From positions 1-37,013 of the forward strand of contig CAYHCR010000001.1 of assembly GCA_964354895.1 (NCBI GenBank): a stretch of DNA of 37,013 nt, given 5' to 3'. How positions within the stretch are numbered: the stretch's first letter is position 1; each line of letters opens with the position of its first letter. The notes under the pieces were generated by a model, which saw only the letters and a list, made by a program, of their open reading frames with translations, was not told the origin of the DNA and ran no database searches. Source of the stretch: an uncultured Myxococcales bacterium. GTDB lineage: Bacteria > Myxococcota > Myxococcia > Myxococcales > Vulgatibacteraceae. The position numbers and the translations under genes were made by a program. Shown piece after piece: positions 1 to 12,334 of this stretch.

Positions 1-669
1 AAGGTCCCGGCCGGCTACGAGCTCATCGCCGTGCACGCGGGCAAGACGCAGCCGGTCCACGACAAGATCGTCGCGAAGACCTACGAGCAGTACGCGGTGA
101 AGGTGCAGGGCCAGAGCGACATCCTCATCCACGGCATCCCGTTCATCACGCCCTACAACGTCAACAGCAAGCACCTCAACCCGCTGCTCGTGCAGGTGAT
201 GGGGCTGGGGTATCTGTTCAACCTGTATCGGGGCCGGCCGCTCGTGAAGAAGGGCGGCGTGCTGATCCTGACGCACCCGCTGACGGACGCGTGGGACATG
301 GATCACCACCCGAGTTATCCCGAATTCTTCCACCGGTGCCTCACCGAGACGACCGACTCGCTCGTGCTCGAGAAGAAGTACGAGGAGGAATTCGCGCACA
401 ACCCGGCCTACATCGAGATGTATCGGCGCGGGAACGCCTTCCACGGCGTCCACCCGTTCTACATGTGGTACTGGGGCGAGAACGGTCGCCAGCACGTCGG
501 CAAGGTCATCGTCGTCGGCTCCGACAACGCGCACGTGCCCAAGGTGATGGGCTGGGAGCGCGCGAGCACGCTGGCGGAGGCGATCGCCATGGCCCGCTCC
601 GAGATGGGGCGCACCGCCTCGATCACGATGGTCCACAACGCGCCGGTCGTCCTCGCGGACGTGGAGTGA
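1..669 (+). CDS. LarA-like (lactate racemase / DUF2088 family) protein, C-terminal part; 5' end lies outside the window
   Basis: The frame is open from base 1 ([17 protein letters not shown]...) with G/C-rich third positions. The pattern [10 protein letters not shown]...[21 protein letters not shown] resembles the C-terminal half of LarA-family proteins. TGA stop at 667-669. The family call rests on remembered pattern only. Confidence 0.5.
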
Positions 670-674
670 CACCC

Positions 675-5341
<4,667 letters not shown>

Positions 5342-5345
<4 letters not shown>

Positions 5346-6487
5346 AGAAGGTCCTCGTCACCGGCGGGACGGGCTTCCTCGGCCGCCACCTCGTCGAGCT
5401 GCTGCTCAAGCGCGGCGAGCAGGTCCGCGTGCTGACGCGCGCGGCGGCGGCGCCCGAGCTCGAGGGGCTCGACGTCGAGTCGATCGAGGGCAGCGTCCTC
5501 TCCCGGGCCGTGGTCGATCGGGCCGTAAAGGATTGCGACGTCGTCTACCATTGCGCCGGGCTCGTCTCCCGCGATCCCGACGCGCTGACGCGGATGATGC
5601 GGCTGCACGTCGAGGGCACGCGCAACGTCCTGCAGGCCGCGGAGGGAGCGAAGGTCCGGCGCGTGGTCGTGGTGAGCACGAGCGGCACGATCGCGGTCAG
5701 CCGGGATCCCGAGGAGCTCTCGACCGAGGCGAGCCCCTACCGCTACGAGCTCGTGCGCGGCTGGCCGTATTACCTCTCGAAGATCTACGAGGAGAAGCAG
5801 GCGCTGTTCGAGGCGGCGTCGATGAAGACCGACGTCGTGATCGTCAACCCGTCGCTGCTGCTCGGGCCCGGTGACTCGCGGCTCTCGTCGACCGGCGACG
5901 TGCTCAAGTTCCTCAAACGCGAGATCCCCGCCACCCCGTCGGGCGGCCTGAACTTCGTGGATGCGCGCGACGCCGCGGCCGGATGCATCCTCGCGGCCGA
6001 GAAGGGCAGACGCGGCGAGCGCTATCTTCTGGGCGGGCCGAACTGGGACTTCGCCGAGTTCTTCTCTCGCCTGGCACGTGTCTCGGACGTGCGTGCGCCG
6101 ACCGCGGCCGTGCCCGATCGGGCGGCGCGCTTCTCCGCGCGGCTCGTGGAGCTGCTGCACAAGGCGCGAAAGGCGGACGGCCTGCCGCCGGTCGATCCGG
6201 TCGGCGTGGAGATGAGCCAGCACGTCTGGTACCTCGATGCGTCCAAGGCGCGCGCGGAGCTCGGCTGGGAGCCGCGCGACCCCATGGAGACGCTCGACGA
6301 CACCGTCGCGTGGCTGCGGGAGAAGCACCTCGGCGGCGACCCGCCGACGCCCAAGGCGCCCTCGTTCCTCGAGACGCTCGTGACCACGCTCGGCGAGCCG
6401 GAGAGGCCCGCGAAGGCCACGCCCCGGCCGCTCTCGAAGGCCAAAAAGAAGCCGGCACCGGTCCGCAAGGGCGCCGCACGACGCTGA
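5342..6487 (+). CDS. NAD-dependent epimerase/dehydratase-family SDR (381 aa) with a Lys/Pro-rich C-terminal tail
   Basis: GTG start overlaps the elbD-like stop (GTGA) and AAGGAG lies 6 nt upstream. N-terminal VLVTGGTGFLGRHLV Rossmann motif and a YYLSK (YxxxK) catalytic motif. Confidence 0.8.
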
Positions 6488-6502: not shown

Positions 6503-7435
6503 TTATCGAGCCGCGGTCCTCTTCACGCGCGCGGCGAAGGCGCGCTGCAGCTCTTCGCCGATCGCCTGGAGCGCGGGCTCGCGCGCCGAGCTGCGTCGCC
6601 AGCAGAGCGCGATCGTCCGCGACGGGGCGGGCGCCGTGAAGGGGCGCACCACGAGCGATTGCCGGCGGTTCTCGACCTCCAGCGCCAGGGTCGGCAACAG
6701 CGTCGCGCCGGCGCCGCCTGCGACCATCTGCACGAGCGTCGGCAGGCTCGTCGCGCGGTAGCCGAGCTCGTGGGCGCCGCGGCGACTGCAGACCTCGAGC
6801 GCGTGATCGCGCAGACAGTGGCCGTCGTCGAGGAGCAGCACGTCCTGGCCGTCGAGCTCGTCGAGCCGCAGGGGCCGACGGGAGCCCGCGAGCGGGTGGC
6901 CCTCCGCCGCCGCAAACACGAACGCGTCCTCGCCGAGCGAGACCCCCGGGAGCTCCGCGAGCTCCGTGGTGCGGGCGAGGATCGCGCCGTCGAGCGCGCC
7001 CGCCGCCATCCGCTCGAGCAGCGTCGCGGTCTTCTCCTCCTGCCAGTGGAACGTCAGCTTCGGGAAGCACTGCCGCAGGCGCGGCGCGAGCTCCGGCAGC
7101 AGGTAGGGGCCGATCGTCGGGATCACGCCGAGCCGCAGCACGCCCGCGAGCGGATCGCCGAGCGTGCCGGCCTGGTCGATCAGCGCGTCGGCCTGCACGA
7201 GCAGCGCGCGCGCCATCGAGACGAAGCGCTCGCCCGCCGCCGTGCACCGCACGCCGCGCGGATCGCGCTCGAAGAGCCGCGCGCCGATCACCTCCTCCAC
7301 CTGCGCGAGCTGCGCGGAGAGCGAGGGCTGCGAGACGCGGCAGGCCTCGGCCGCCTTTCGGAAGCTCTGCCGGTCCGCCACGGCGACCACGTACTGCAGC
7401 TGGCGGAGCGTCACCGGGTGGGGCGAGAGGCGCAT
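6503..7435 (-). CDS. oxyR: LysR-family redox-sensing transcriptional regulator OxyR
   Basis: N-terminal HTH (FRKAAEACRVSQPSLSAQL). The stretch DDGHCLRDHALEVC...YRATSLPTLVQMVAGGAGATLLP aligns with the E. coli OxyR region carrying the redox pair C199/C208. An alternative GTG start at 7414 is possible. Confidence 0.85.
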   Translation of the reverse strand: MRLSPHPVTLRQLQYVVAVADRQSFRKAAEACRVSQPSLSAQLAQVEEVIGARLFERDPRGVRCTAAGERFVSMARALLVQADALIDQAGTLGDPLAGVLRLGVIPTIGPYLLPELAPRLRQCFPKLTFHWQEEKTATLLERMAAGALDGAILARTTELAELPGVSLGEDAFVFAAAEGHPLAGSRRPLRLDELDGQDVLLLDDGHCLRDHALEVCSRRGAHELGYRATSLPTLVQMVAGGAGATLLPTLALEVENRRQSLVVRPFTAPAPSRTIALCWRRSSAREPALQAIGEELQRAFAARVKRTAAR

Positions 7436-7470: not shown

Positions 7471-7513
7471 AAAAGACGACGGCCCCGCCCGGCCGAAGCC
7501 AGACGGGGCCGCC
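7471..7513 (-). terminator. Rho-independent terminator downstream of the octahaem cytochrome gene
   Basis: On the minus strand there is a 16-bp stem (including 3 G-U pairs that exist only in the minus-strand RNA) closed by a UUCG tetraloop. It is followed by GUCUUUUCC and sits 22 nt after the stop at 7535. Confidence 0.6.
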
Positions 7514-7534: not shown

Positions 7535-9499
7535 TCAGTGGAACGTCACGCCCGTGTAGGCGGTGGCGTTGCCGTCGCCGTCGGAGTCGACGCTCATGCC
7601 GACGCCGGCCGGGTAGAGATCGAACTCCTCGTTCATGCTCCCCGGCGTCCAGTAGACGCCCTGGTACGGCACGTCCGGGACGGTCGCGAGGTTGTTCTCG
7701 ATCGCGTACTCGAGCGCCGCGTCCTGGCGCAGCTGGTACGCCTCCGCCGCGATGTCCGCGAAGCCCAGGTTCGACTCCGCCCAGCCGTACCAGTGCGCGT
7801 AGTCCGGGTTCATGTGGTACGCGCCGTGCCACGTCTTCACGAAGTCATACTTGTAGAGCTTGAAGTAGAGCCGCTCCGCCTCCGAGAGGTTGCGGTAGAT
7901 CATCGGGCCGCCGAGCACGAGCGTGCCGGGCGCGGCGTCGGGGTTGTTCGGGCGACCCATCGCCGAGCCCGGCGTCGGCGGCCGCAGCAGGCCGTCGAAG
8001 TAGAGCGCCTTGAGGATGTCTGCGGCCTCGTCGACGACCACGTGGACGTTCTCGTGCATGCCGTCGGCGATCTCCAGCCGCTCCGCCGCGTTGTTGCGGG
8101 CGTGGCAGCCGGTGCAGACATCGAGCATCTCCTCGCGCCGCGCCGTGAGCACGTTTGCGGGATCCACCACCTGCACGATCGTGCCGTCGCGATCGTCGGG
8201 GAAGGCGGAGTCGGCGAGGCCGTCGGCGCCGGCCATGTCGAAGGGTGCGGCGGGATCCCAGGCGGGGTTCTCCTCGATCGCCGTGCCATTCATCACGTAG
8301 GGCAGCTCGCCGCCGCGGCGGAAGCTGCGGTGGGAGGGCATGCCGCCCACCGGTCCATACGCGATGCCGTACGAGAGATCGTGGTCGGTGTAGGGCCGGC
8401 CGTTCACGTCGACGCCCTTCTTCGGCATGTGGCAGTCGCTGCAGGTGGGCGCGCGGCCGCGGCCTTCCGTCTCGTAGACCACGCCGTGCTTGCTGGTCGT
8501 GTAGATCTCGTACTGCGAGTGATCCGGGCCCATGTGGCAGGTGCCGCAGGCGAGCGGCTCCTGCGCCTGCTTTGCGTCGAAGAGGTGGCGGCTGTGGCAG
8601 GAGTCGCACTTGTCCTCGACGTTGTGACAGTTCGAGCAGGTCGCGACGCCGCCCGAATAGATGTCTCCGTTCGCCGTACAGGGCGGCAGGTCGTCGAACC
8701 GGCCGGCCTCGAACATCCGCTGCCAGCCGATGGAGTGGCGGTTCGCCTGGTGGCCGCGGTACTGCGCCGGGTGGCACGTCGCGCAGGTCGCAGGCGACGG
8801 CATCGGGTTGTGGTTCGGCGCGCCGGCGACGTCCGTGCCGTGGCACTCCTGGCACGAGACCTCCTCCGCCATCTTGCTCGCCTTGTAGTCGGCGACGACG
8901 CCGTCGGTCATGAGCGCGTGGCAACCGATGCAGAGATCGGACTCGGCCTTCCACGAGCCGAGCGCGAGCGCGACGTCGACCACGCCGTTGGCGACGACCG
9001 AGACGTGCAGGGTGGCAGGCGCATACATTCCGTTTCCGGCGTTCACCTCGTACGTGCCGATCGGGAGCGTGAAGGAGAACGAGCCGTCGATCGCCGTGAC
9101 CACTTCCGCGGCCTCGGCCGGGAGGATCGAGACCGTCGCGCCGCCGACCGTCGTGCCGCCGGCCGTCTCGGTGACGACGCCGCGCAGGGTGCCGTGCCAG
9201 AGGCCGTCCGCGCCGGGCCCGCCGTCCTGGCCGTCGAGGCCGGGCGCGCCGTCAGCGCCGGGGGCGCCATCGACGCCGGGGGCGCCGTCAACGCCGGGGA
9301 CGCCGTCCTCCCCGTCGACACCATCCACACCATCGACACCATCCGCACCGTTCGCGCCATCCGCGCCGGGGAGACCGACGCCGCCCGCGGGGCCCTGCGA
9401 CCCGTCCGCGCCCGCCGCACCGTCTTCGCCTCCGCACGCGACCAGTACGATCGCCAAGCATCCGCTCAAGATTCCGCCGAGGACTCTGCTCCGCGCCAT
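7535..9499 (-). CDS. Lipoprotein: collagen-like G-X-Y stalk + CarboxypepD_reg-like beta-sandwich + octahaem c-type cytochrome of the hydroxylamine oxidoreductase (HAO)-like type (654 aa)
   Basis: AGGAGG lies 5 nt upstream of the ATG at 9499. Signal peptide with lipobox LVAC (Cys22). 25 uninterrupted G-X-Y triplets. Eight CxxCH motifs (CIGCH, CQECH, CATCH, CSNCH, CDSCH, CGTCH, CSDCH, CTGCH) followed by a long helical C-terminal region. Confidence 0.85.
   Translation of the reverse strand: MARSRVLGGILSGCLAIVLVACGGEDGAAGADGSQGPAGGVGLPGADGANGADGVDGVDGVDGEDGVPGVDGAPGVDGAPGADGAPGLDGQDGGPGADGLWHGTLRGVVTETAGGTTVGGATVSILPAEAAEVVTAIDGSFSFTLPIGTYEVNAGNGMYAPATLHVSVVANGVVDVALALGSWKAESDLCIGCHALMTDGVVADYKASKMAEEVSCQECHGTDVAGAPNHNPMPSPATCATCHPAQYRGHQANRHSIGWQRMFEAGRFDDLPPCTANGDIYSGGVATCSNCHNVEDKCDSCHSRHLFDAKQAQEPLACGTCHMGPDHSQYEIYTTSKHGVVYETEGRGRAPTCSDCHMPKKGVDVNGRPYTDHDLSYGIAYGPVGGMPSHRSFRRGGELPYVMNGTAIEENPAWDPAAPFDMAGADGLADSAFPDDRDGTIVQVVDPANVLTARREEMLDVCTGCHARNNAAERLEIADGMHENVHVVVDEAADILKALYFDGLLRPPTPGSAMGRPNNPDAAPGTLVLGGPMIYRNLSEAERLYFKLYKYDFVKTWHGAYHMNPDYAHWYGWAESNLGFADIAAEAYQLRQDAALEYAIENNLATVPDVPYQGVYWTPGSMNEEFDLYPAGVGMSVDSDGDGNATAYTGVTFH
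9206..9430 (-). repeat. Collagen-like triple-helix repeat coding tract (25 x G-X-Y, Asp-rich)
   Basis: The translation reads GED GAA GAD GSQ GPA GGV GLP GAD GAN GAD GVD GVD GVD GED GVP GVD GAP GVD GAP GAD GAP GLD GQD GGP GAD. The underlying DNA contains 9-nt periodic repeats. Confidence 0.8.
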
Positions 9500-9724
9500 G
9501 GGGCCTCCTGCACGAGGCGATCGACGCCTCCTGCTCCGTTCTGGCGTCGGCGTACGCCTCCGGCGGAGGGGCGCACATGACAGCCGTCAGGTCCGCTGAT
9601 CGGTGTCGGTGGGTCTCCGAAGGGGCGAATTGCCTCAGATCCTCGCGCGATTGCGGACGAGGCAAGCCGCCCTCCCGCGCGCGCGGGGGCTTGGTCGCTT
9701 GACGTCGCCCGCGGGTGCAGCGCC

Positions 9725-10117
9725 GTGGACGGGGCGCGATGCGTGCGCGATGCTGGCGCCGTGCGACGCCTTGCCCTGCCCCTCCTGCTGCTCTCCGCCG
9801 GCTGCTTCCCCGAGCGGCCGCCGATCTCGCTGTTCGGCGAGCTCTGCGGCAACGGCCTCGACGATGACGCCGACGACCTCGTCGACTGCGCAGATCCGGA
9901 CTGCGCCGCAGCGTGTGACGGCGTGACCGGGGCGATCGAGAGCGACTGCAGCGACGGCGCGGACGACGACGACGACGGCCTCGAGGACTGCGAGGACCCC
10001 GACTGCGCCTCGCAGTGCGACGACGTCGAACGCGACTGCGAGGACGGCGTCGACGACGACGGCGATGGCGCGGTCGACTGTGCCGACGACGACTGCAGCG
10101 GCGAGACGGGTTGCTGA
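9725..10117 (+). CDS. Small secreted lipoprotein made of three Asp-rich four-Cys repeats (putative Ca2+-binding module)
   Basis: Lipoprotein signal RRLALPLLLLSAGC. In-frame GTG starts at 9725, 9743 and 9761, with the later ones giving a more typical signal peptide length. Three repeats follow the pattern C-x-[DN]-G-x-D-D-D-x-D-x-x-x-D-C-x-D-x-D-C-x3-C. Confidence 0.6.
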   Translation: MDGARCVRDAGAVRRLALPLLLLSAGCFPERPPISLFGELCGNGLDDDADDLVDCADPDCAAACDGVTGAIESDCSDGADDDDDGLEDCEDPDCASQCDDVERDCEDGVDDDGDGAVDCADDDCSGETGC

Positions 10118-10134: not shown

Positions 10135-11469
10135 CTACGAGCGCGGCCCTCGGTGTGGCGGACGGGGCGTGCCGGGTGGTCGCGGTGGCGACGCGGGCCG
10201 TGGCACGGAGCGGACCTCGACGGCCGGCCGGGACGTCGGCGCCCGCGAGGCATTGGGCGGTGGCGCGGACGGACGAGGCTCCCGTGGCGGACGACCGCCG
10301 CCGTTCTGCCGGCCTGCTCCGTGCCCTGCCGGACGCTGGCCTCCACCACCCTGCGGACGTGCGCCCCGGCGCTCGGCCGGCGGAGCACTCGGCGGACGTG
10401 CGCCCCGACCCCCGGCCGGCGCACCGCCCTGCGGCCGCGCGGCCCGGCTCTCCACCGGCGCACCGCCCTGCGGCCGCGCGCCCGGCTGCGGTCGCCGATC
10501 TCCCTCGTGCGATCGCGGCCCACCCGCGTGCGACCTCGCGCCCGGAGCGGCCGGCGCTGCCCCGGCTCCTGGCCGGTGACCCGCGCCTCCGTGAGGCCTG
10601 TGACCGGAAGGCGCTCGCCCCTCCGCGGCTGGCTGGGACCTGCCTCCCCCGGGATGGGGCCGGCCCCCGCCCGGCGAGGCTCTCGGCGCGGCCTGCGGCG
10701 CCCGCGGCGGCGGTGCGATCGGCGCCGGCCGGCCGCTGGGCACGAAGTCCGCCGTCAGCTCACGCCGAACGTAGGCGCGCCAGATCTCCCCGGTGTCTCC
10801 CGTCCGCGCCTTCACGGCCGGATCGAAGCCACCGAAGAACCCACGCAGGTTCTCCAGATCGCGCTCGAAGTACTGCTCGGACTGGCTGTTCTTGGCCGCC
10901 GCGATCGTCTGCGGGAAGTCGATGATCACCGGCCCCGTCGGCCCGATCAGCACGTTGTACGGCGAGAGATCTCCGTGGATCAGATCCGCCATGAGCATCT
11001 TCACGGCCTCGCCACGCAGAAACTCATACAGCGGCCCGGCGTTCTCCGCCGTGATCTCCGCGTCGATCAGCCGGGGCGCCGGGTGGCCGTCTTCGGCCAG
11101 CACGAGCTCCATCAGGAGCACGCCCTCGAAGAAGAGCACGGGCTTCGGGACACAGACGCCAGCGGCGTGCAGCGTGAAGAGCGCGTCGGCCTCGGCGCTC
11201 TTCCACGCCTCCTCGGCGGAGGCCCGGCCGAACTTGCTGCCCTTGTCCATCGCGCGCTGCGTGCGCGAATTGCGGACCGTACGCCCCTCCTTGTAGCCGG
11301 CGTCGTTCTTGAAGCTGCGGAACTCCCGCTGCTTGTAGATCTTGGCCGCGACGAGCACGCCGCCATGGCGGACGAGCCAGACGTCGGCCTCCTTGCCGCT
11401 CTTGAGCCGGCCTACCACCTCGTCGACGACGCCCTCCTCCTGCAGCATCGCGAGCGGATCGTGCTTCAT
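10135..11469 (-). CDS. RIO-type serine protein kinase with ~200-aa Pro/Gly/Arg-rich C-terminal tail (444 aa)
   Basis: ATG at 11469 with GGGGAG upstream. RIO motifs: SGKEADVW (nucleotide loop), AAKIYK Lys, IHGDLSPYNVL catalytic loop, IIDFPQ metal loop. The tail (about 10135-10745) is low complexity with internal repeats (ARPQGGAP). Confidence 0.75.
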   Translation of the reverse strand: MKHDPLAMLQEEGVVDEVVGRLKSGKEADVWLVRHGGVLVAAKIYKQREFRSFKNDAGYKEGRTVRNSRTQRAMDKGSKFGRASAEEAWKSAEADALFTLHAAGVCVPKPVLFFEGVLLMELVLAEDGHPAPRLIDAEITAENAGPLYEFLRGEAVKMLMADLIHGDLSPYNVLIGPTGPVIIDFPQTIAAAKNSQSEQYFERDLENLRGFFGGFDPAVKARTGDTGEIWRAYVRRELTADFVPSGRPAPIAPPPRAPQAAPRASPGGGRPHPGGGRSQPAAEGRAPSGHRPHGGAGHRPGAGAAPAAPGARSHAGGPRSHEGDRRPQPGARPQGGAPVESRAARPQGGAPAGGRGARPPSAPPAERRGARPQGGGGQRPAGHGAGRQNGGGRPPREPRPSAPPPNASRAPTSRPAVEVRSVPRPASPPRPPGTPRPPHRGPRS

Positions 11470-11491
11470 GTTCTCCCCGCCGGGCAGCGGC

Positions 11492-12334
11492 TCACGCCCC
11501 GCCGGTCGCGACCGCGCGCGACGCATCGCGCGACCAGTCGGAGAAACTTCCCTCATACAGCTTTGCGTCGGTTCGCCCCAGCCGCGCGAGCGCGAGCAGC
11601 GTGTGACACGCCGTCACGCCCGAGCCGCACGAGGCGATCGCCGCGCGGCCTTCGGACAGTCCTGCTGCTGCATAACGTTCCGCGAGCGCCGGCGCCGGCA
11701 GGAACCGCCCGTCCGCCCCGAGGTGCTCCGTCGTCGGCACGTTCACGGCGCCCGGCACGTGGCCCGCCCGCGGATCGACCGGCTCGACCTCGCCGCGGTA
11801 CCGCGCCGCCACGCGCGCGTCCGACAGGAACGCGCCCGTCGCGACCGCCGCCGCGACGCCGGCCGCGTCGATCACGGCGCCGCGATCCAGCCGGAGCGTG
11901 CGATCTGCGCGTCCCACGTCCGCTGGCACGACGCGATCGAGCGCGCCGCCGGCCGCGAGGAAGCTCTGCAGACCGCCATCGAGGACGAAGCAACGCGCGT
12001 GGCCGGCGCGCGTCAGCAGCCACCACAGCCGGGCCGCGATCGCTCCACCCGCGTCGTCATATGCGACGACGTCGCTCTCGATTCCGATCCCGAGCCGCGC
12101 CGCGAGCGCCTGCAGCTGCGCGTCCGTGGGCAGCGGATGGCGCCCCGGACCGCGGGCCTTGTCCCCCGAGAGCTCCGCGTCGAGATCGACGAAGAAGGCG
12201 CCCGGCACGTGGCCCGCCAGGTATTCGTCCCGGCCGATCCGACCCTGGAGGTACCAGCGCACGTCGCACACGACGAGGCCGGGCCGGCCGCGACGAGCGG
12301 CGAGCCAGGCTGAATCGACGAGCGGATCGGTCAC
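11492..12334 (-). CDS. sseA: 3-mercaptopyruvate sulfurtransferase (tandem rhodanese domains)
   Basis: GTG at 12334 with GGAGG 4 nt upstream. The N-terminus LVDSAWLA aligns with the start of E. coli SseA. Active-site loop SCGSGVTA (CG[ST]GVT type). 280 aa, typical for the family. The track's extension to 12520 was rejected. Confidence 0.85.
   Translation of the reverse strand: MTDPLVDSAWLAARRGRPGLVVCDVRWYLQGRIGRDEYLAGHVPGAFFVDLDAELSGDKARGPGRHPLPTDAQLQALAARLGIGIESDVVAYDDAGGAIAARLWWLLTRAGHARCFVLDGGLQSFLAAGGALDRVVPADVGRADRTLRLDRGAVIDAAGVAAAVATGAFLSDARVAARYRGEVEPVDPRAGHVPGAVNVPTTEHLGADGRFLPAPALAERYAAAGLSEGRAAIASCGSGVTACHTLLALARLGRTDAKLYEGSFSDWSRDASRAVATGGA

Follow-up and report, generated by a model that had tools for sequence, protein, structure and literature searches.

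A predicted lipoprotein that joins a collagen-like tract to an octahaem domain of the hydroxylamine oxidoreductase family in uncultured Myxococcota

We analysed a 37,013-nucleotide stretch of DNA from an uncultured Myxococcales bacterium (contig CAYHCR010000001.1 of assembly GCA_964354895.1; hereafter the window), and in particular a gene on its reverse strand that encodes a multihaem protein. From the N-terminus to the C-terminus, the protein consists of a signal peptide with a lipobox, a tract of G-X-Y triplets, a beta-sandwich, a domain of the hydroxylamine oxidoreductase (HAO) family with eight CxxCH haem motifs, and a 53-residue C-terminal extension (Table 1). The gene looks like an intact, real gene, with a strong Shine-Dalgarno sequence and a GC content at third codon positions of 0.91, and the fusion of a lipobox-plus-collagen module to an octahaem HAO-like domain is confirmed within a single open reading frame (ORF). 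A first-pass annotation of this DNA, made without database searches, had described such a fusion; its claims are taken up below with the results that bear on them.

Table 1. Coordinates of the haem gene, its encoded elements and the adjoining features in the window
Feature	Position	Strand	Details and basis
Haem-protein ORF	7535..9499	(-)	654 aa, ATG start; ORF read from sequence
Shine-Dalgarno AGGAGG	9504..9509	(-)	4 nt 5' of the ATG at 9499; read from sequence
Predicted signal peptide and lipobox L-V-A-C (aa 1-22)	9434..9499	(-)	Motif inspection; orthologue conservation
Collagen-like tract, 26 G-X-Y triplets (aa 24-101)	9197..9430	(-)	Sequence count; Pfam PF01391
CarboxypepD_reg / transthyretin-like beta-sandwich (aa 102-181)	8957..9196	(-)	AlphaFold2, Foldseek
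HAO-family octahaem domain (aa 186-601)	7697..8944	(-)	Pfam PF13447, NCBIfam, PDB profile search, Foldseek
CxxCH haem motifs 1-4	8918-8932, 8840-8854, 8771-8785, 8624-8638	(-)	Haem 4 catalytic by homology
CxxCH haem motifs 5-8	8594-8608, 8534-8548, 8429-8443, 8102-8116	(-)	
Asp326-His327, column of the HAO distal catalytic Asp/His pair	8519..8524	(-)	HMMER alignments
NPDYAHWYGW motif (aa 564-573), contains His569	7781..7810	(-)	HMMER alignments to 4fas/1fgj
C-terminal extension (aa 602-654), beta-rich	7538..7696	(-)	AlphaFold2; terminal His654 at nt 7538-7540
Stop codon of the haem gene	7535-7537	(-)	
Terminator-like GC-rich hairpin and T-run	7480..7501	(-)	Between the haem gene and oxyR; consensus scan
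oxyR-type LysR regulator gene	6503..7435	(-)	Downstream of the haem gene; NCBIfam OxyR 251.7 bits

The N-terminus, MARSRVLGGILSGCLAIVLVAC, is a signal peptide in which MARSR and a hydrophobic core precede L-V-A-Cys22, and this ending fits the lipobox pattern [LVI][ASTVI][GAS]C on motif inspection. A second lipobox-like motif, LSGC14, lies within the signal peptide; orthologues conserve Cys22, at which the mature protein is predicted to begin and to be lipidated. One residue further on, 26 G-X-Y triplets run without interruption from Gly24 to Trp101. Given the glycine frequency of 0.103 in the rest of the protein, the chance of 26 in-phase glycines is about 1e-26. The tract scores 41.4 bits against the Pfam Collagen model PF01391 (cut-off 27.2), and NCBIfam reports partial matches of the protein to SclB, SclA and Lcl. 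Its Y positions hold Asp in 14 of the 26 triplets and Pro in 6, Lys and Arg are absent, and the net charge is -16. At the DNA level the tract shows a degenerate 9/18/27-bp periodicity. As a triple helix (0.286 nm per residue) it would be about 22 nm long, and the tracts of the orthologues would span 12-34 nm. The first-pass annotation had named Cys22 as the lipobox cysteine and had noted an uninterrupted, Asp-rich tract and eight CxxCH sites, all of which we find; its count of 25 triplets, which corresponds to counting from Gly27, falls one short.

To place the protein among its relatives, we combined a word-indexed search of 5.8 billion proteins, which returned about 35 orthologue-like sequences (36-62% identity), with an exhaustive phmmer search of 1.84 billion representatives. 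The latter found 668 HAO-like proteins, and only a handful of 50%-identity clusters among them fall in this family. The closest orthologue (66% identity) comes from a metagenome-assembled genome (MAG) of a groundwater Myxococcales bacterium. Nine of the best ten matches among GTDB species genomes (L003-L010 and L027) are Myxococcota MAGs labelled Myxococcales, Polyangiales or Polyangiaceae, and the tenth (L011) is an unclassified uncultured bacterium. Where the databases give the relatives a name, it is 'hypothetical protein'.

We translated 11 orthologous loci and compared their tracts and haem motifs. In all 11, a single residue separates the lipobox Cys from the first Gly of a G-X-Y tract, so that this spacing is constant, and equivalent lipoboxes occur in every orthologue whose N-terminus is intact. 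In 10 of the 11 loci the tract, whose loss or disruption in orthologues the first-pass annotation had regarded as fatal to its proposal, continues in frame through 15-40 triplets without a break. In L010 the run is broken after 10 triplets; that gene is also cut short by the contig end, leaving seven CxxCH motifs and no C-terminus. The ten complete genes all encode eight CxxCH motifs and a C-terminus of the form ...[TV]FH. In two loci (L007 and L009) the tblastn matches start only at query residues 89 and 103, and the lipobox and collagen are encoded upstream. Six database entries without collagen (P0012, P0016 and P0018-P0021) look like N-terminal truncations because the signal peptide is missing as well, and two others (P0014 and P0015) begin within the tract. 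Across 21 family members the longest runs total 444 triplets without interruption, while the residues at X and Y range from Pro/Ala/Gln/Thr-rich to Asp-rich. A G-X-Y tract was absent from 20 other long HAO-like representatives.

A distant subclade (about 38% identity) departs from this layout. It has no beta-sandwich; the tract is followed either by exactly 22 residues up to haem 1 or by acidic, Cys-bracketed repeats. The latter occur in P0024, P0026, P0027 and P0029 as C[WY]DL[DN]GNG...D...DC units between the tract and the haem domain, and they resemble calcium-binding repeats. In three proteins (P0031, P0034 and P0035) a non-periodic linker rich in Gly, Asn, Asp and Pro stands in place of collagen.

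These three linkers bear on whether the tract forms a triple helix at all, since they suggest that it could instead be a flexible, low-complexity tether, with a head that trimerises (or does not) by itself. Such a tether would also fit the purely acidic charge and low Pro content of the window tract, the low confidence of AlphaFold2 (AF2) in this region, and the ease with which repetitive DNA lets length drift. We consider it improbable. In 10 of the 11 orthologous loci and in the 21 family members, Gly recurs strictly at every third position while the X and Y residues change, and a disordered linker would not need this regularity; the Pfam Collagen score exceeds its cut-off; and the partner domain comes from an obligately threefold family.

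Four independent tests assign the octahaem domain to the HAO family. The eight CxxCH motifs of the domain, at residues 190, 216, 239, 288, 298, 318, 353 and 462, follow the HAO-family order. Pfam PF13447 matches with 93.9 bits (E 1.3e-26; cut-off 21.9), and the NCBIfam hydrazine dehydrogenase model NF052343 matches the domain in part. A HMMER profile of the family, run against PDB sequences, found Kustc0458 (6h5l, 4e-51), Nitrosomonas europaea HAO (4fas, 2.5e-42), Kustc1061 (4n4j, 3e-41), B. fulgida HAO (3e-41), hydrazine dehydrogenase (HDH; 6hif, 4.5e-34) and IhOCC (4qo5, 1e-30). The best 11 Foldseek matches of the AF2 model are all HAO-family chains (probability 1.00, E 1e-14 to 5e-10). The TM-scores (TMt) of these matches are only 0.48-0.57, because the haem-free model is mediocre in its core (overall pLDDT 71); a second AF2 model, of the haem domain alone from an 8-sequence alignment, was discarded at pLDDT 45. 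Every solved relative matched by the domain belongs to the trimeric HAO family, so that both the family assignment of the first-pass annotation and its expectation that the domain would not group with a non-trimeric multihaem family are borne out. HAO-like enzymes have been described as trimers in the shape of a cone, with a haem relay arranged as a ring (PMC6469936, PMC8042395).

We found that the active site combines a conserved feature of the family with a distinctive substitution. Asp326-His327, in a GPDH motif after haem 6, align with Asp267/His268 of N. europaea HAO. The pair is invariant in the family and present in 15 of 16 outgroup HAO-like proteins, in line with its reported conservation in HAOs (PMC6469936). 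An alignment aimed at the Nitrosomonas-type cross-linking Tyr, as proposed in the first-pass annotation, shows that this residue is absent: His569, within NPDYAHWYGW, stands in the alignment column of Tyr467 (a numbering also used in bioRxiv 10.64898/2026.07.28.741245), which forms the haem cross-link in N. europaea HAO. His is invariant at this column in the family and occurs in 13 of the 16 outgroup proteins, where the residues seen are H, W, Y and R; a Brocadia paralogue has Tyr here. HAO-like proteins that have yet to be characterised, from Thermoleophilia, Methanoperedens, Planctomycetota, Acidobacteriota and others, share a longer form of the motif, AYHxNPDYxHWYGW.

Because an invariant His occupies the Tyr467 column, the window protein appears to belong to the non-cross-linked ('reductive') HAO branch, and the replacement points to reductive chemistry and not to the oxidative chemistry of Nitrosomonas. 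Cross-link-free HAOs reduce their substrates in vitro: HAOr converts nitrite to NO (PMC8042395), and BpMHAO, which has a non-cross-linked head, shows hydroxylamine reductase activity (bioRxiv 10.64898/2026.07.28.741245). The most likely reaction is thus reduction of nitrite, NO or hydroxylamine. An oxidative enzyme of the kind found in Nitrosomonas or anammox bacteria, a true hydroxylamine/hydrazine oxidoreductase carrying a P460-type cofactor, would share the family membership and the Asp-His pair, but we regard it as highly implausible. His stands in the Tyr467 column in all family members, the two tyrosines that flank it in the window protein (Tyr567 and Tyr571) are out of register with that column, and the neighbourhood of the gene contains neither amo nor hzs nor a cytochrome c554 gene.

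Three further histidines, H250, H482 and the terminal H654, are invariant in this family only and may form an extra set of haem or metal ligands or an active-site element. H654 closes the 53-residue beta-rich extension, which AF2 predicts with a pLDDT of 80-93 and which ends in Thr-Phe-His; the ...[TV]FH end is found in about 30 complete family members and is absent from other HAO-like proteins. In HDH a terminal residue from the adjoining monomer lines the haem-4 pocket (PMC6469936), so that the conserved C-terminal His654 could likewise belong to the active site. The extension follows the last of the long helices that AF2 places at residues 468-501, 540-561 and 565-601. The long helical C-terminus of the first-pass annotation is thus present in the model, and the beta-rich segment beyond it had been missed.

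Between the tract and the haem domain, residues 102-181 form six strands, predicted mostly with pLDDT above 90. Foldseek relates them to the transthyretin-like domains of carboxypeptidases D/N (1qmu_A, root-mean-square deviation (rmsd) 1.2 A; 5aq0, TMt 0.69) and, at 25% identity, to Kustc1130, an assembly factor of HDH with 86 residues (6hif_Y; TMt 0.77, rmsd 1.3 A). The CarboxypepD_reg-like fold that had been suggested from sequence is supported at the level of the predicted structure, while the Pfam CarbopepD_reg_2 match (PF13715/PF13620 type) to the window sandwich is weak, at 19 bits against a cut-off of 32.2; for orthologues PF13620 is on record as a precomputed match. By sequence position, the sandwich replaces about 75 residues that lie N-terminal to haem 1 in solved HAOs. 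Kustc1130 is a separate protein of anammox bacteria that docks on HAO-family trimers (PMC6469936), and the sandwich, which superposes on it, is fused in the window protein. We do not claim homology between the two, since there was no sequence-level match and the carboxypeptidase domains fit equally well; the likeness may be one of fold only.

The Cys-x-(GXY)n module is not confined to HAO-like proteins. It also occurs, with 25-33 triplets, on two unrelated multihaem proteins: P0090 (locus L083, 6001-8187), which is OcwA-like (6i5b, E 2.7e-7), and P0099 (locus L084, 1066-3477), which has a CarboxypepD_reg beta-sandwich and eight CxxCH motifs and no clear solved relative. A two-component system adjoins each of these genes, with a histidine kinase and a sigma-54 activator encoded upstream of the P0090 gene and a histidine kinase and a GerE-type response regulator encoded downstream of the P0099 gene.

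OcwA is described as a cell-surface terminal reductase (PMC6703420). The presence of the module on an OcwA-like protein, and on P0099, would fit a window protein that acts as a surface-displayed electron-transfer head. In that case the acidic rod would push a 24-haem head outward to minerals, electrodes, prey or partner cells, the lipoprotein being exported in the manner of MtrC/OmcA in Shewanella and the HAO fold serving mainly as a wire or as a terminal reductase for extracellular acceptors. A stalk whose length varies freely would suit this arrangement, as would Asp-rich tracts, which could bind cations or mineral surfaces, and a periplasmic partner gene is not conserved. We nevertheless hold it to be doubtful: the strictly conserved Asp-His pair argues for small-molecule catalysis, and no porin-cytochrome, type II secretion or surface-lipoprotein export genes lie near the gene in the window or in the orthologous loci.

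The residue at +2 after Cys22 is Gly, and the orthologues have no conserved Asp or Lys there. Under the lipoprotein sorting rules of E. coli and Myxococcus, such a +2 residue points to the outer membrane. By these default rules the protein is probably a lipoprotein of the periplasmic face of the outer membrane, which we offer as a guess.

The genomic neighbourhood had suggested a role in oxidative or nitrosative stress to the first-pass annotation, since the haem gene lies directly upstream of oxyR. The downstream gene does appear to encode a true OxyR-type LysR regulator, with a GHCLRD...C motif and both redox cysteines, and OsmC and rhodanese genes lie within 5 kb. An enzyme under OxyR control that protects against such stress would also be compatible with the reductive chemistry favoured above, in the form of NO or hydroxylamine detoxification. 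One orthologous locus (L001 16764-20564; orthologue P0005, Myxococcota JACRCW01) has genes for an extracytoplasmic function (ECF) sigma factor, NnrU and a CCP/MauG-like dihaem peroxidase within 10 kb downstream; NnrU belongs to a family linked to NO/nitrite reductase expression, and this locus holds the sole nitrogen-oxide or peroxide hint among the related loci. Several results speak against the link, and we rejected it. The regulator scores below the NCBIfam OxyR cut-off of 329 bits, and a terminator-like hairpin separates the two genes, although this was 1 site in a consensus scan in which 0.7 were expected and is weak on its own. Neither OxyR nor any of six other window neighbours had a tblastn match in 12 related loci, and other orthologues adjoin sigma-54 activators instead. 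Control by OxyR is consequently a remote prospect in our assessment.

An all-against-all comparison of ORFs around the 11 orthologues found no common neighbour, except a sigma-54 activator in three near-identical genomes. This activator, which has no receiver domain, lies directly upstream of the orthologue (L002 4391-5425, L005 4396-5463 and L006 8827-9894). A sigma-54 promoter scan upstream of the haem gene in the window gave chance-level matches only, with none in 9500-9724, and a sigma-70 scan found nothing. The other genes of the window have unrelated functions: a reductase/ligase resembling non-ribosomal peptide synthetases, an epimerase, a RIO kinase, rhodanese, OsmC, von Willebrand factor A (VWA) proteins, an SNF2 helicase, a histidine kinase and beta-oxidation enzymes. 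Divergent from the haem gene, 9725-10117 (+) encodes a 130-residue putative lipoprotein (LSAGC) with Cys/Asp-rich repeats of the form C..DDD.D..DC.D.DC and no Pfam match. The RIO1-domain kinase encoded at 10135-11556 (-) ends in a Pro-, Gly- and Arg-rich tail of about 230 residues. At the start of the window, 3-5345 (+) encodes a protein of more than 1780 residues with NAD_binding_4 reductase, AMP-binding, PP-binding and acyltransferase domains, which may resemble the myxobacterial ether-lipid enzyme of the ElbD type; it is followed by an epimerase-family gene (5342-6487, +).

Comparison with characterised systems shows that the parts of the window protein are known separately. The best match in both sequence and fold is Kustc0458 (HAOr) of Kuenenia stuttgartiensis (6H5L). 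Like the window protein, it combines eight haems with the Asp-His pair and is free of the Tyr cross-link; it forms a trimeric alpha3 core and acts as a reductase in vitro (PMC8042395). Identity between the two proteins is only about 26%. Kustc0458 is a soluble protein whose partner is the dihaem Kustc0457; it shows Trp rather than His around the Tyr column, and it lacks the lipid anchor, the collagen tract, the beta-sandwich and the C-terminal TFH extension. The trimeric paradigm of the family, represented by N. europaea HAO (1FGJ/4FAS), Kustc1061 and HDH, has the same order of haem motifs, the same fold and the same Asp/His pair; in contrast to the window protein with its His569, these enzymes are oxidative and have haem 4 cross-linked to the Tyr (P460). 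BpMHAO of Ca. Brocadia pituitae joins an obligate-trimer, N-terminal small-laccase domain to a non-cross-linked HAO head, and in its AlphaFold3 model the laccase lies on the threefold axis, at the broad end of the cone (bioRxiv 10.64898/2026.07.28.741245). Its fused module is a copper oxidase and not a structural stalk; it has no lipid anchor, and it is found only in Planctomycetota.

On the collagen side, Scl1/Scl2, BclA and Lcl resemble the proposed form of the window protein in combining uninterrupted G-X-Y tracts, which do without hydroxyproline, with a globular trimeric domain able to nucleate the helix. They differ in being adhesins or exosporium fibres with LPXTG or other anchors and non-enzymatic heads, whereas the window protein has a predicted N-terminal lipid anchor and a redox-enzyme head. 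The principle proposed for the window protein, of a trimeric rod that is anchored at one end and sets the distance of a head (or wall) from the membrane, is shared with Braun's lipoprotein Lpp, ColQ-acetylcholinesterase, MARCO/SR-A and the collectins. Lpp, a coiled coil, carries no enzyme, and the collagens named here are eukaryotic proteins that have neither sequence nor type of anchor in common with the window protein.

We propose that the window protein is a lipid-anchored, stalked member of the non-cross-linked HAO branch, a trimer carried on a collagen rod and acting as an N-oxide reductase, and we give this reading a probability of roughly 0.55. After export and lipidation at Cys22, three chains would join through the HAO head, since all solved members of the HAO family form conical trimers that contain a ring of 24 haems; going by the family, haem 4 would be five-coordinate. 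The three G-X-Y tracts, which start one residue past the lipidated Cys, would then coil together along the threefold axis as a single triple helix. The resulting rod, of the lengths calculated above and anchored by three lipidated ends, would keep a collar of beta-sandwiches and a head of 24 haems off the membrane. There the head would most likely take electrons from a periplasmic or membrane donor and pass them to a small N-oxide, reducing nitrite, NO or hydroxylamine, and it would not oxidise hydroxylamine. The symmetry of the stalk probably matches that of the threefold head, which probably also stiffens the stalk, and the small laccase on the axis of BpMHAO, as modelled by AlphaFold3, sets a precedent for the fusion of a trimeric module to the N-terminus of an HAO head.

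In the first-pass annotation the stalk had been seen as a built-in trimeriser and a spacer. Of these roles, that of spacer is the better supported and the likely primary one, because collagen-free members exist, the module occurs on non-HAO cytochromes and the length varies. The first two of these observations also speak against a need for the tract in trimerisation, and a trimerising effect would be a compatible bonus.

Several findings weigh against our proposal. AF2 assigns the collagen tract a pLDDT below 50 in the monomer model. The 14 Asp at Y positions are a second concern, as Asp at this position reportedly destabilises the triple helix in the host-guest data of Persikov from 2000; an acidic tract without basic residues may form a helix that is only marginally stable or depends on cations. 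Across the family, tract length ranges from 5 to 40 triplets and three distant members are collagen-free, so that neither the length nor the helix is essential. The outer-membrane placement would depend on sorting rules carried over from E. coli and Myxococcus. The family-specific H250, H482 and H654 could alter the active site. Finally, no conserved redox partner, nitrate/nitrite gene or cytochrome adjoins the gene in the window or the orthologous loci, and the substrate is consequently a guess from family chemistry alone.

The occurrence of the module on several heads also allows a broader view, which we think unlikely. Lipo-collagen stalks, consisting of a lipobox Cys, one residue and 5-40 triplets, could be a general, unrecognised device of diderm bacteria that carries multihaem heads of HAO-like, OcwA-like and other types. 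The rigid, threefold-anchored rod would hold these heads 12-34 nm from the membrane, spanning much of the periplasm or projecting from the surface. Under this same speculative view, H250, H482 and H654 may reshape the pocket of haem 4, acting within a subunit or between subunits, and so allow a chemistry unlike that of known HAOs.

Full-text searches of a literature library, pairing collagen with multihaem, octahaem or HAO, found no paper describing such a fusion, in agreement with the first-pass annotation, which knew of none. Each part is of a known kind, the enzyme belonging to the HAO family, the repeat to the collagen-like tracts of bacteria and the whole to the lipoproteins; the combination appears to be new and is conserved in one lineage. 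A preprint of July 2026 calls the fused trimeric domain on an HAO 'unprecedented' (bioRxiv 10.64898/2026.07.28.741245), and the window gene represents a second, different HAO fusion, with a collagen rod and a predicted lipid anchor, conserved across a Myxococcota lineage.

HAO-family enzymes catalyse key reactions of the nitrogen cycle, and their function depends on the trimer. The window protein would be a natural case of a threefold enzyme matched to a threefold fibre, and the conservation of the stalk suggests that the distance of the 24-haem head from the membrane is under selection. As the stalk can be removed or varied in length, the proposal lends itself to testable constructs. These findings extend bacterial collagen-like proteins from adhesins to redox enzymes, and they place what appear to be non-cross-linked HAO-like enzymes in predatory or soil Myxococcota.

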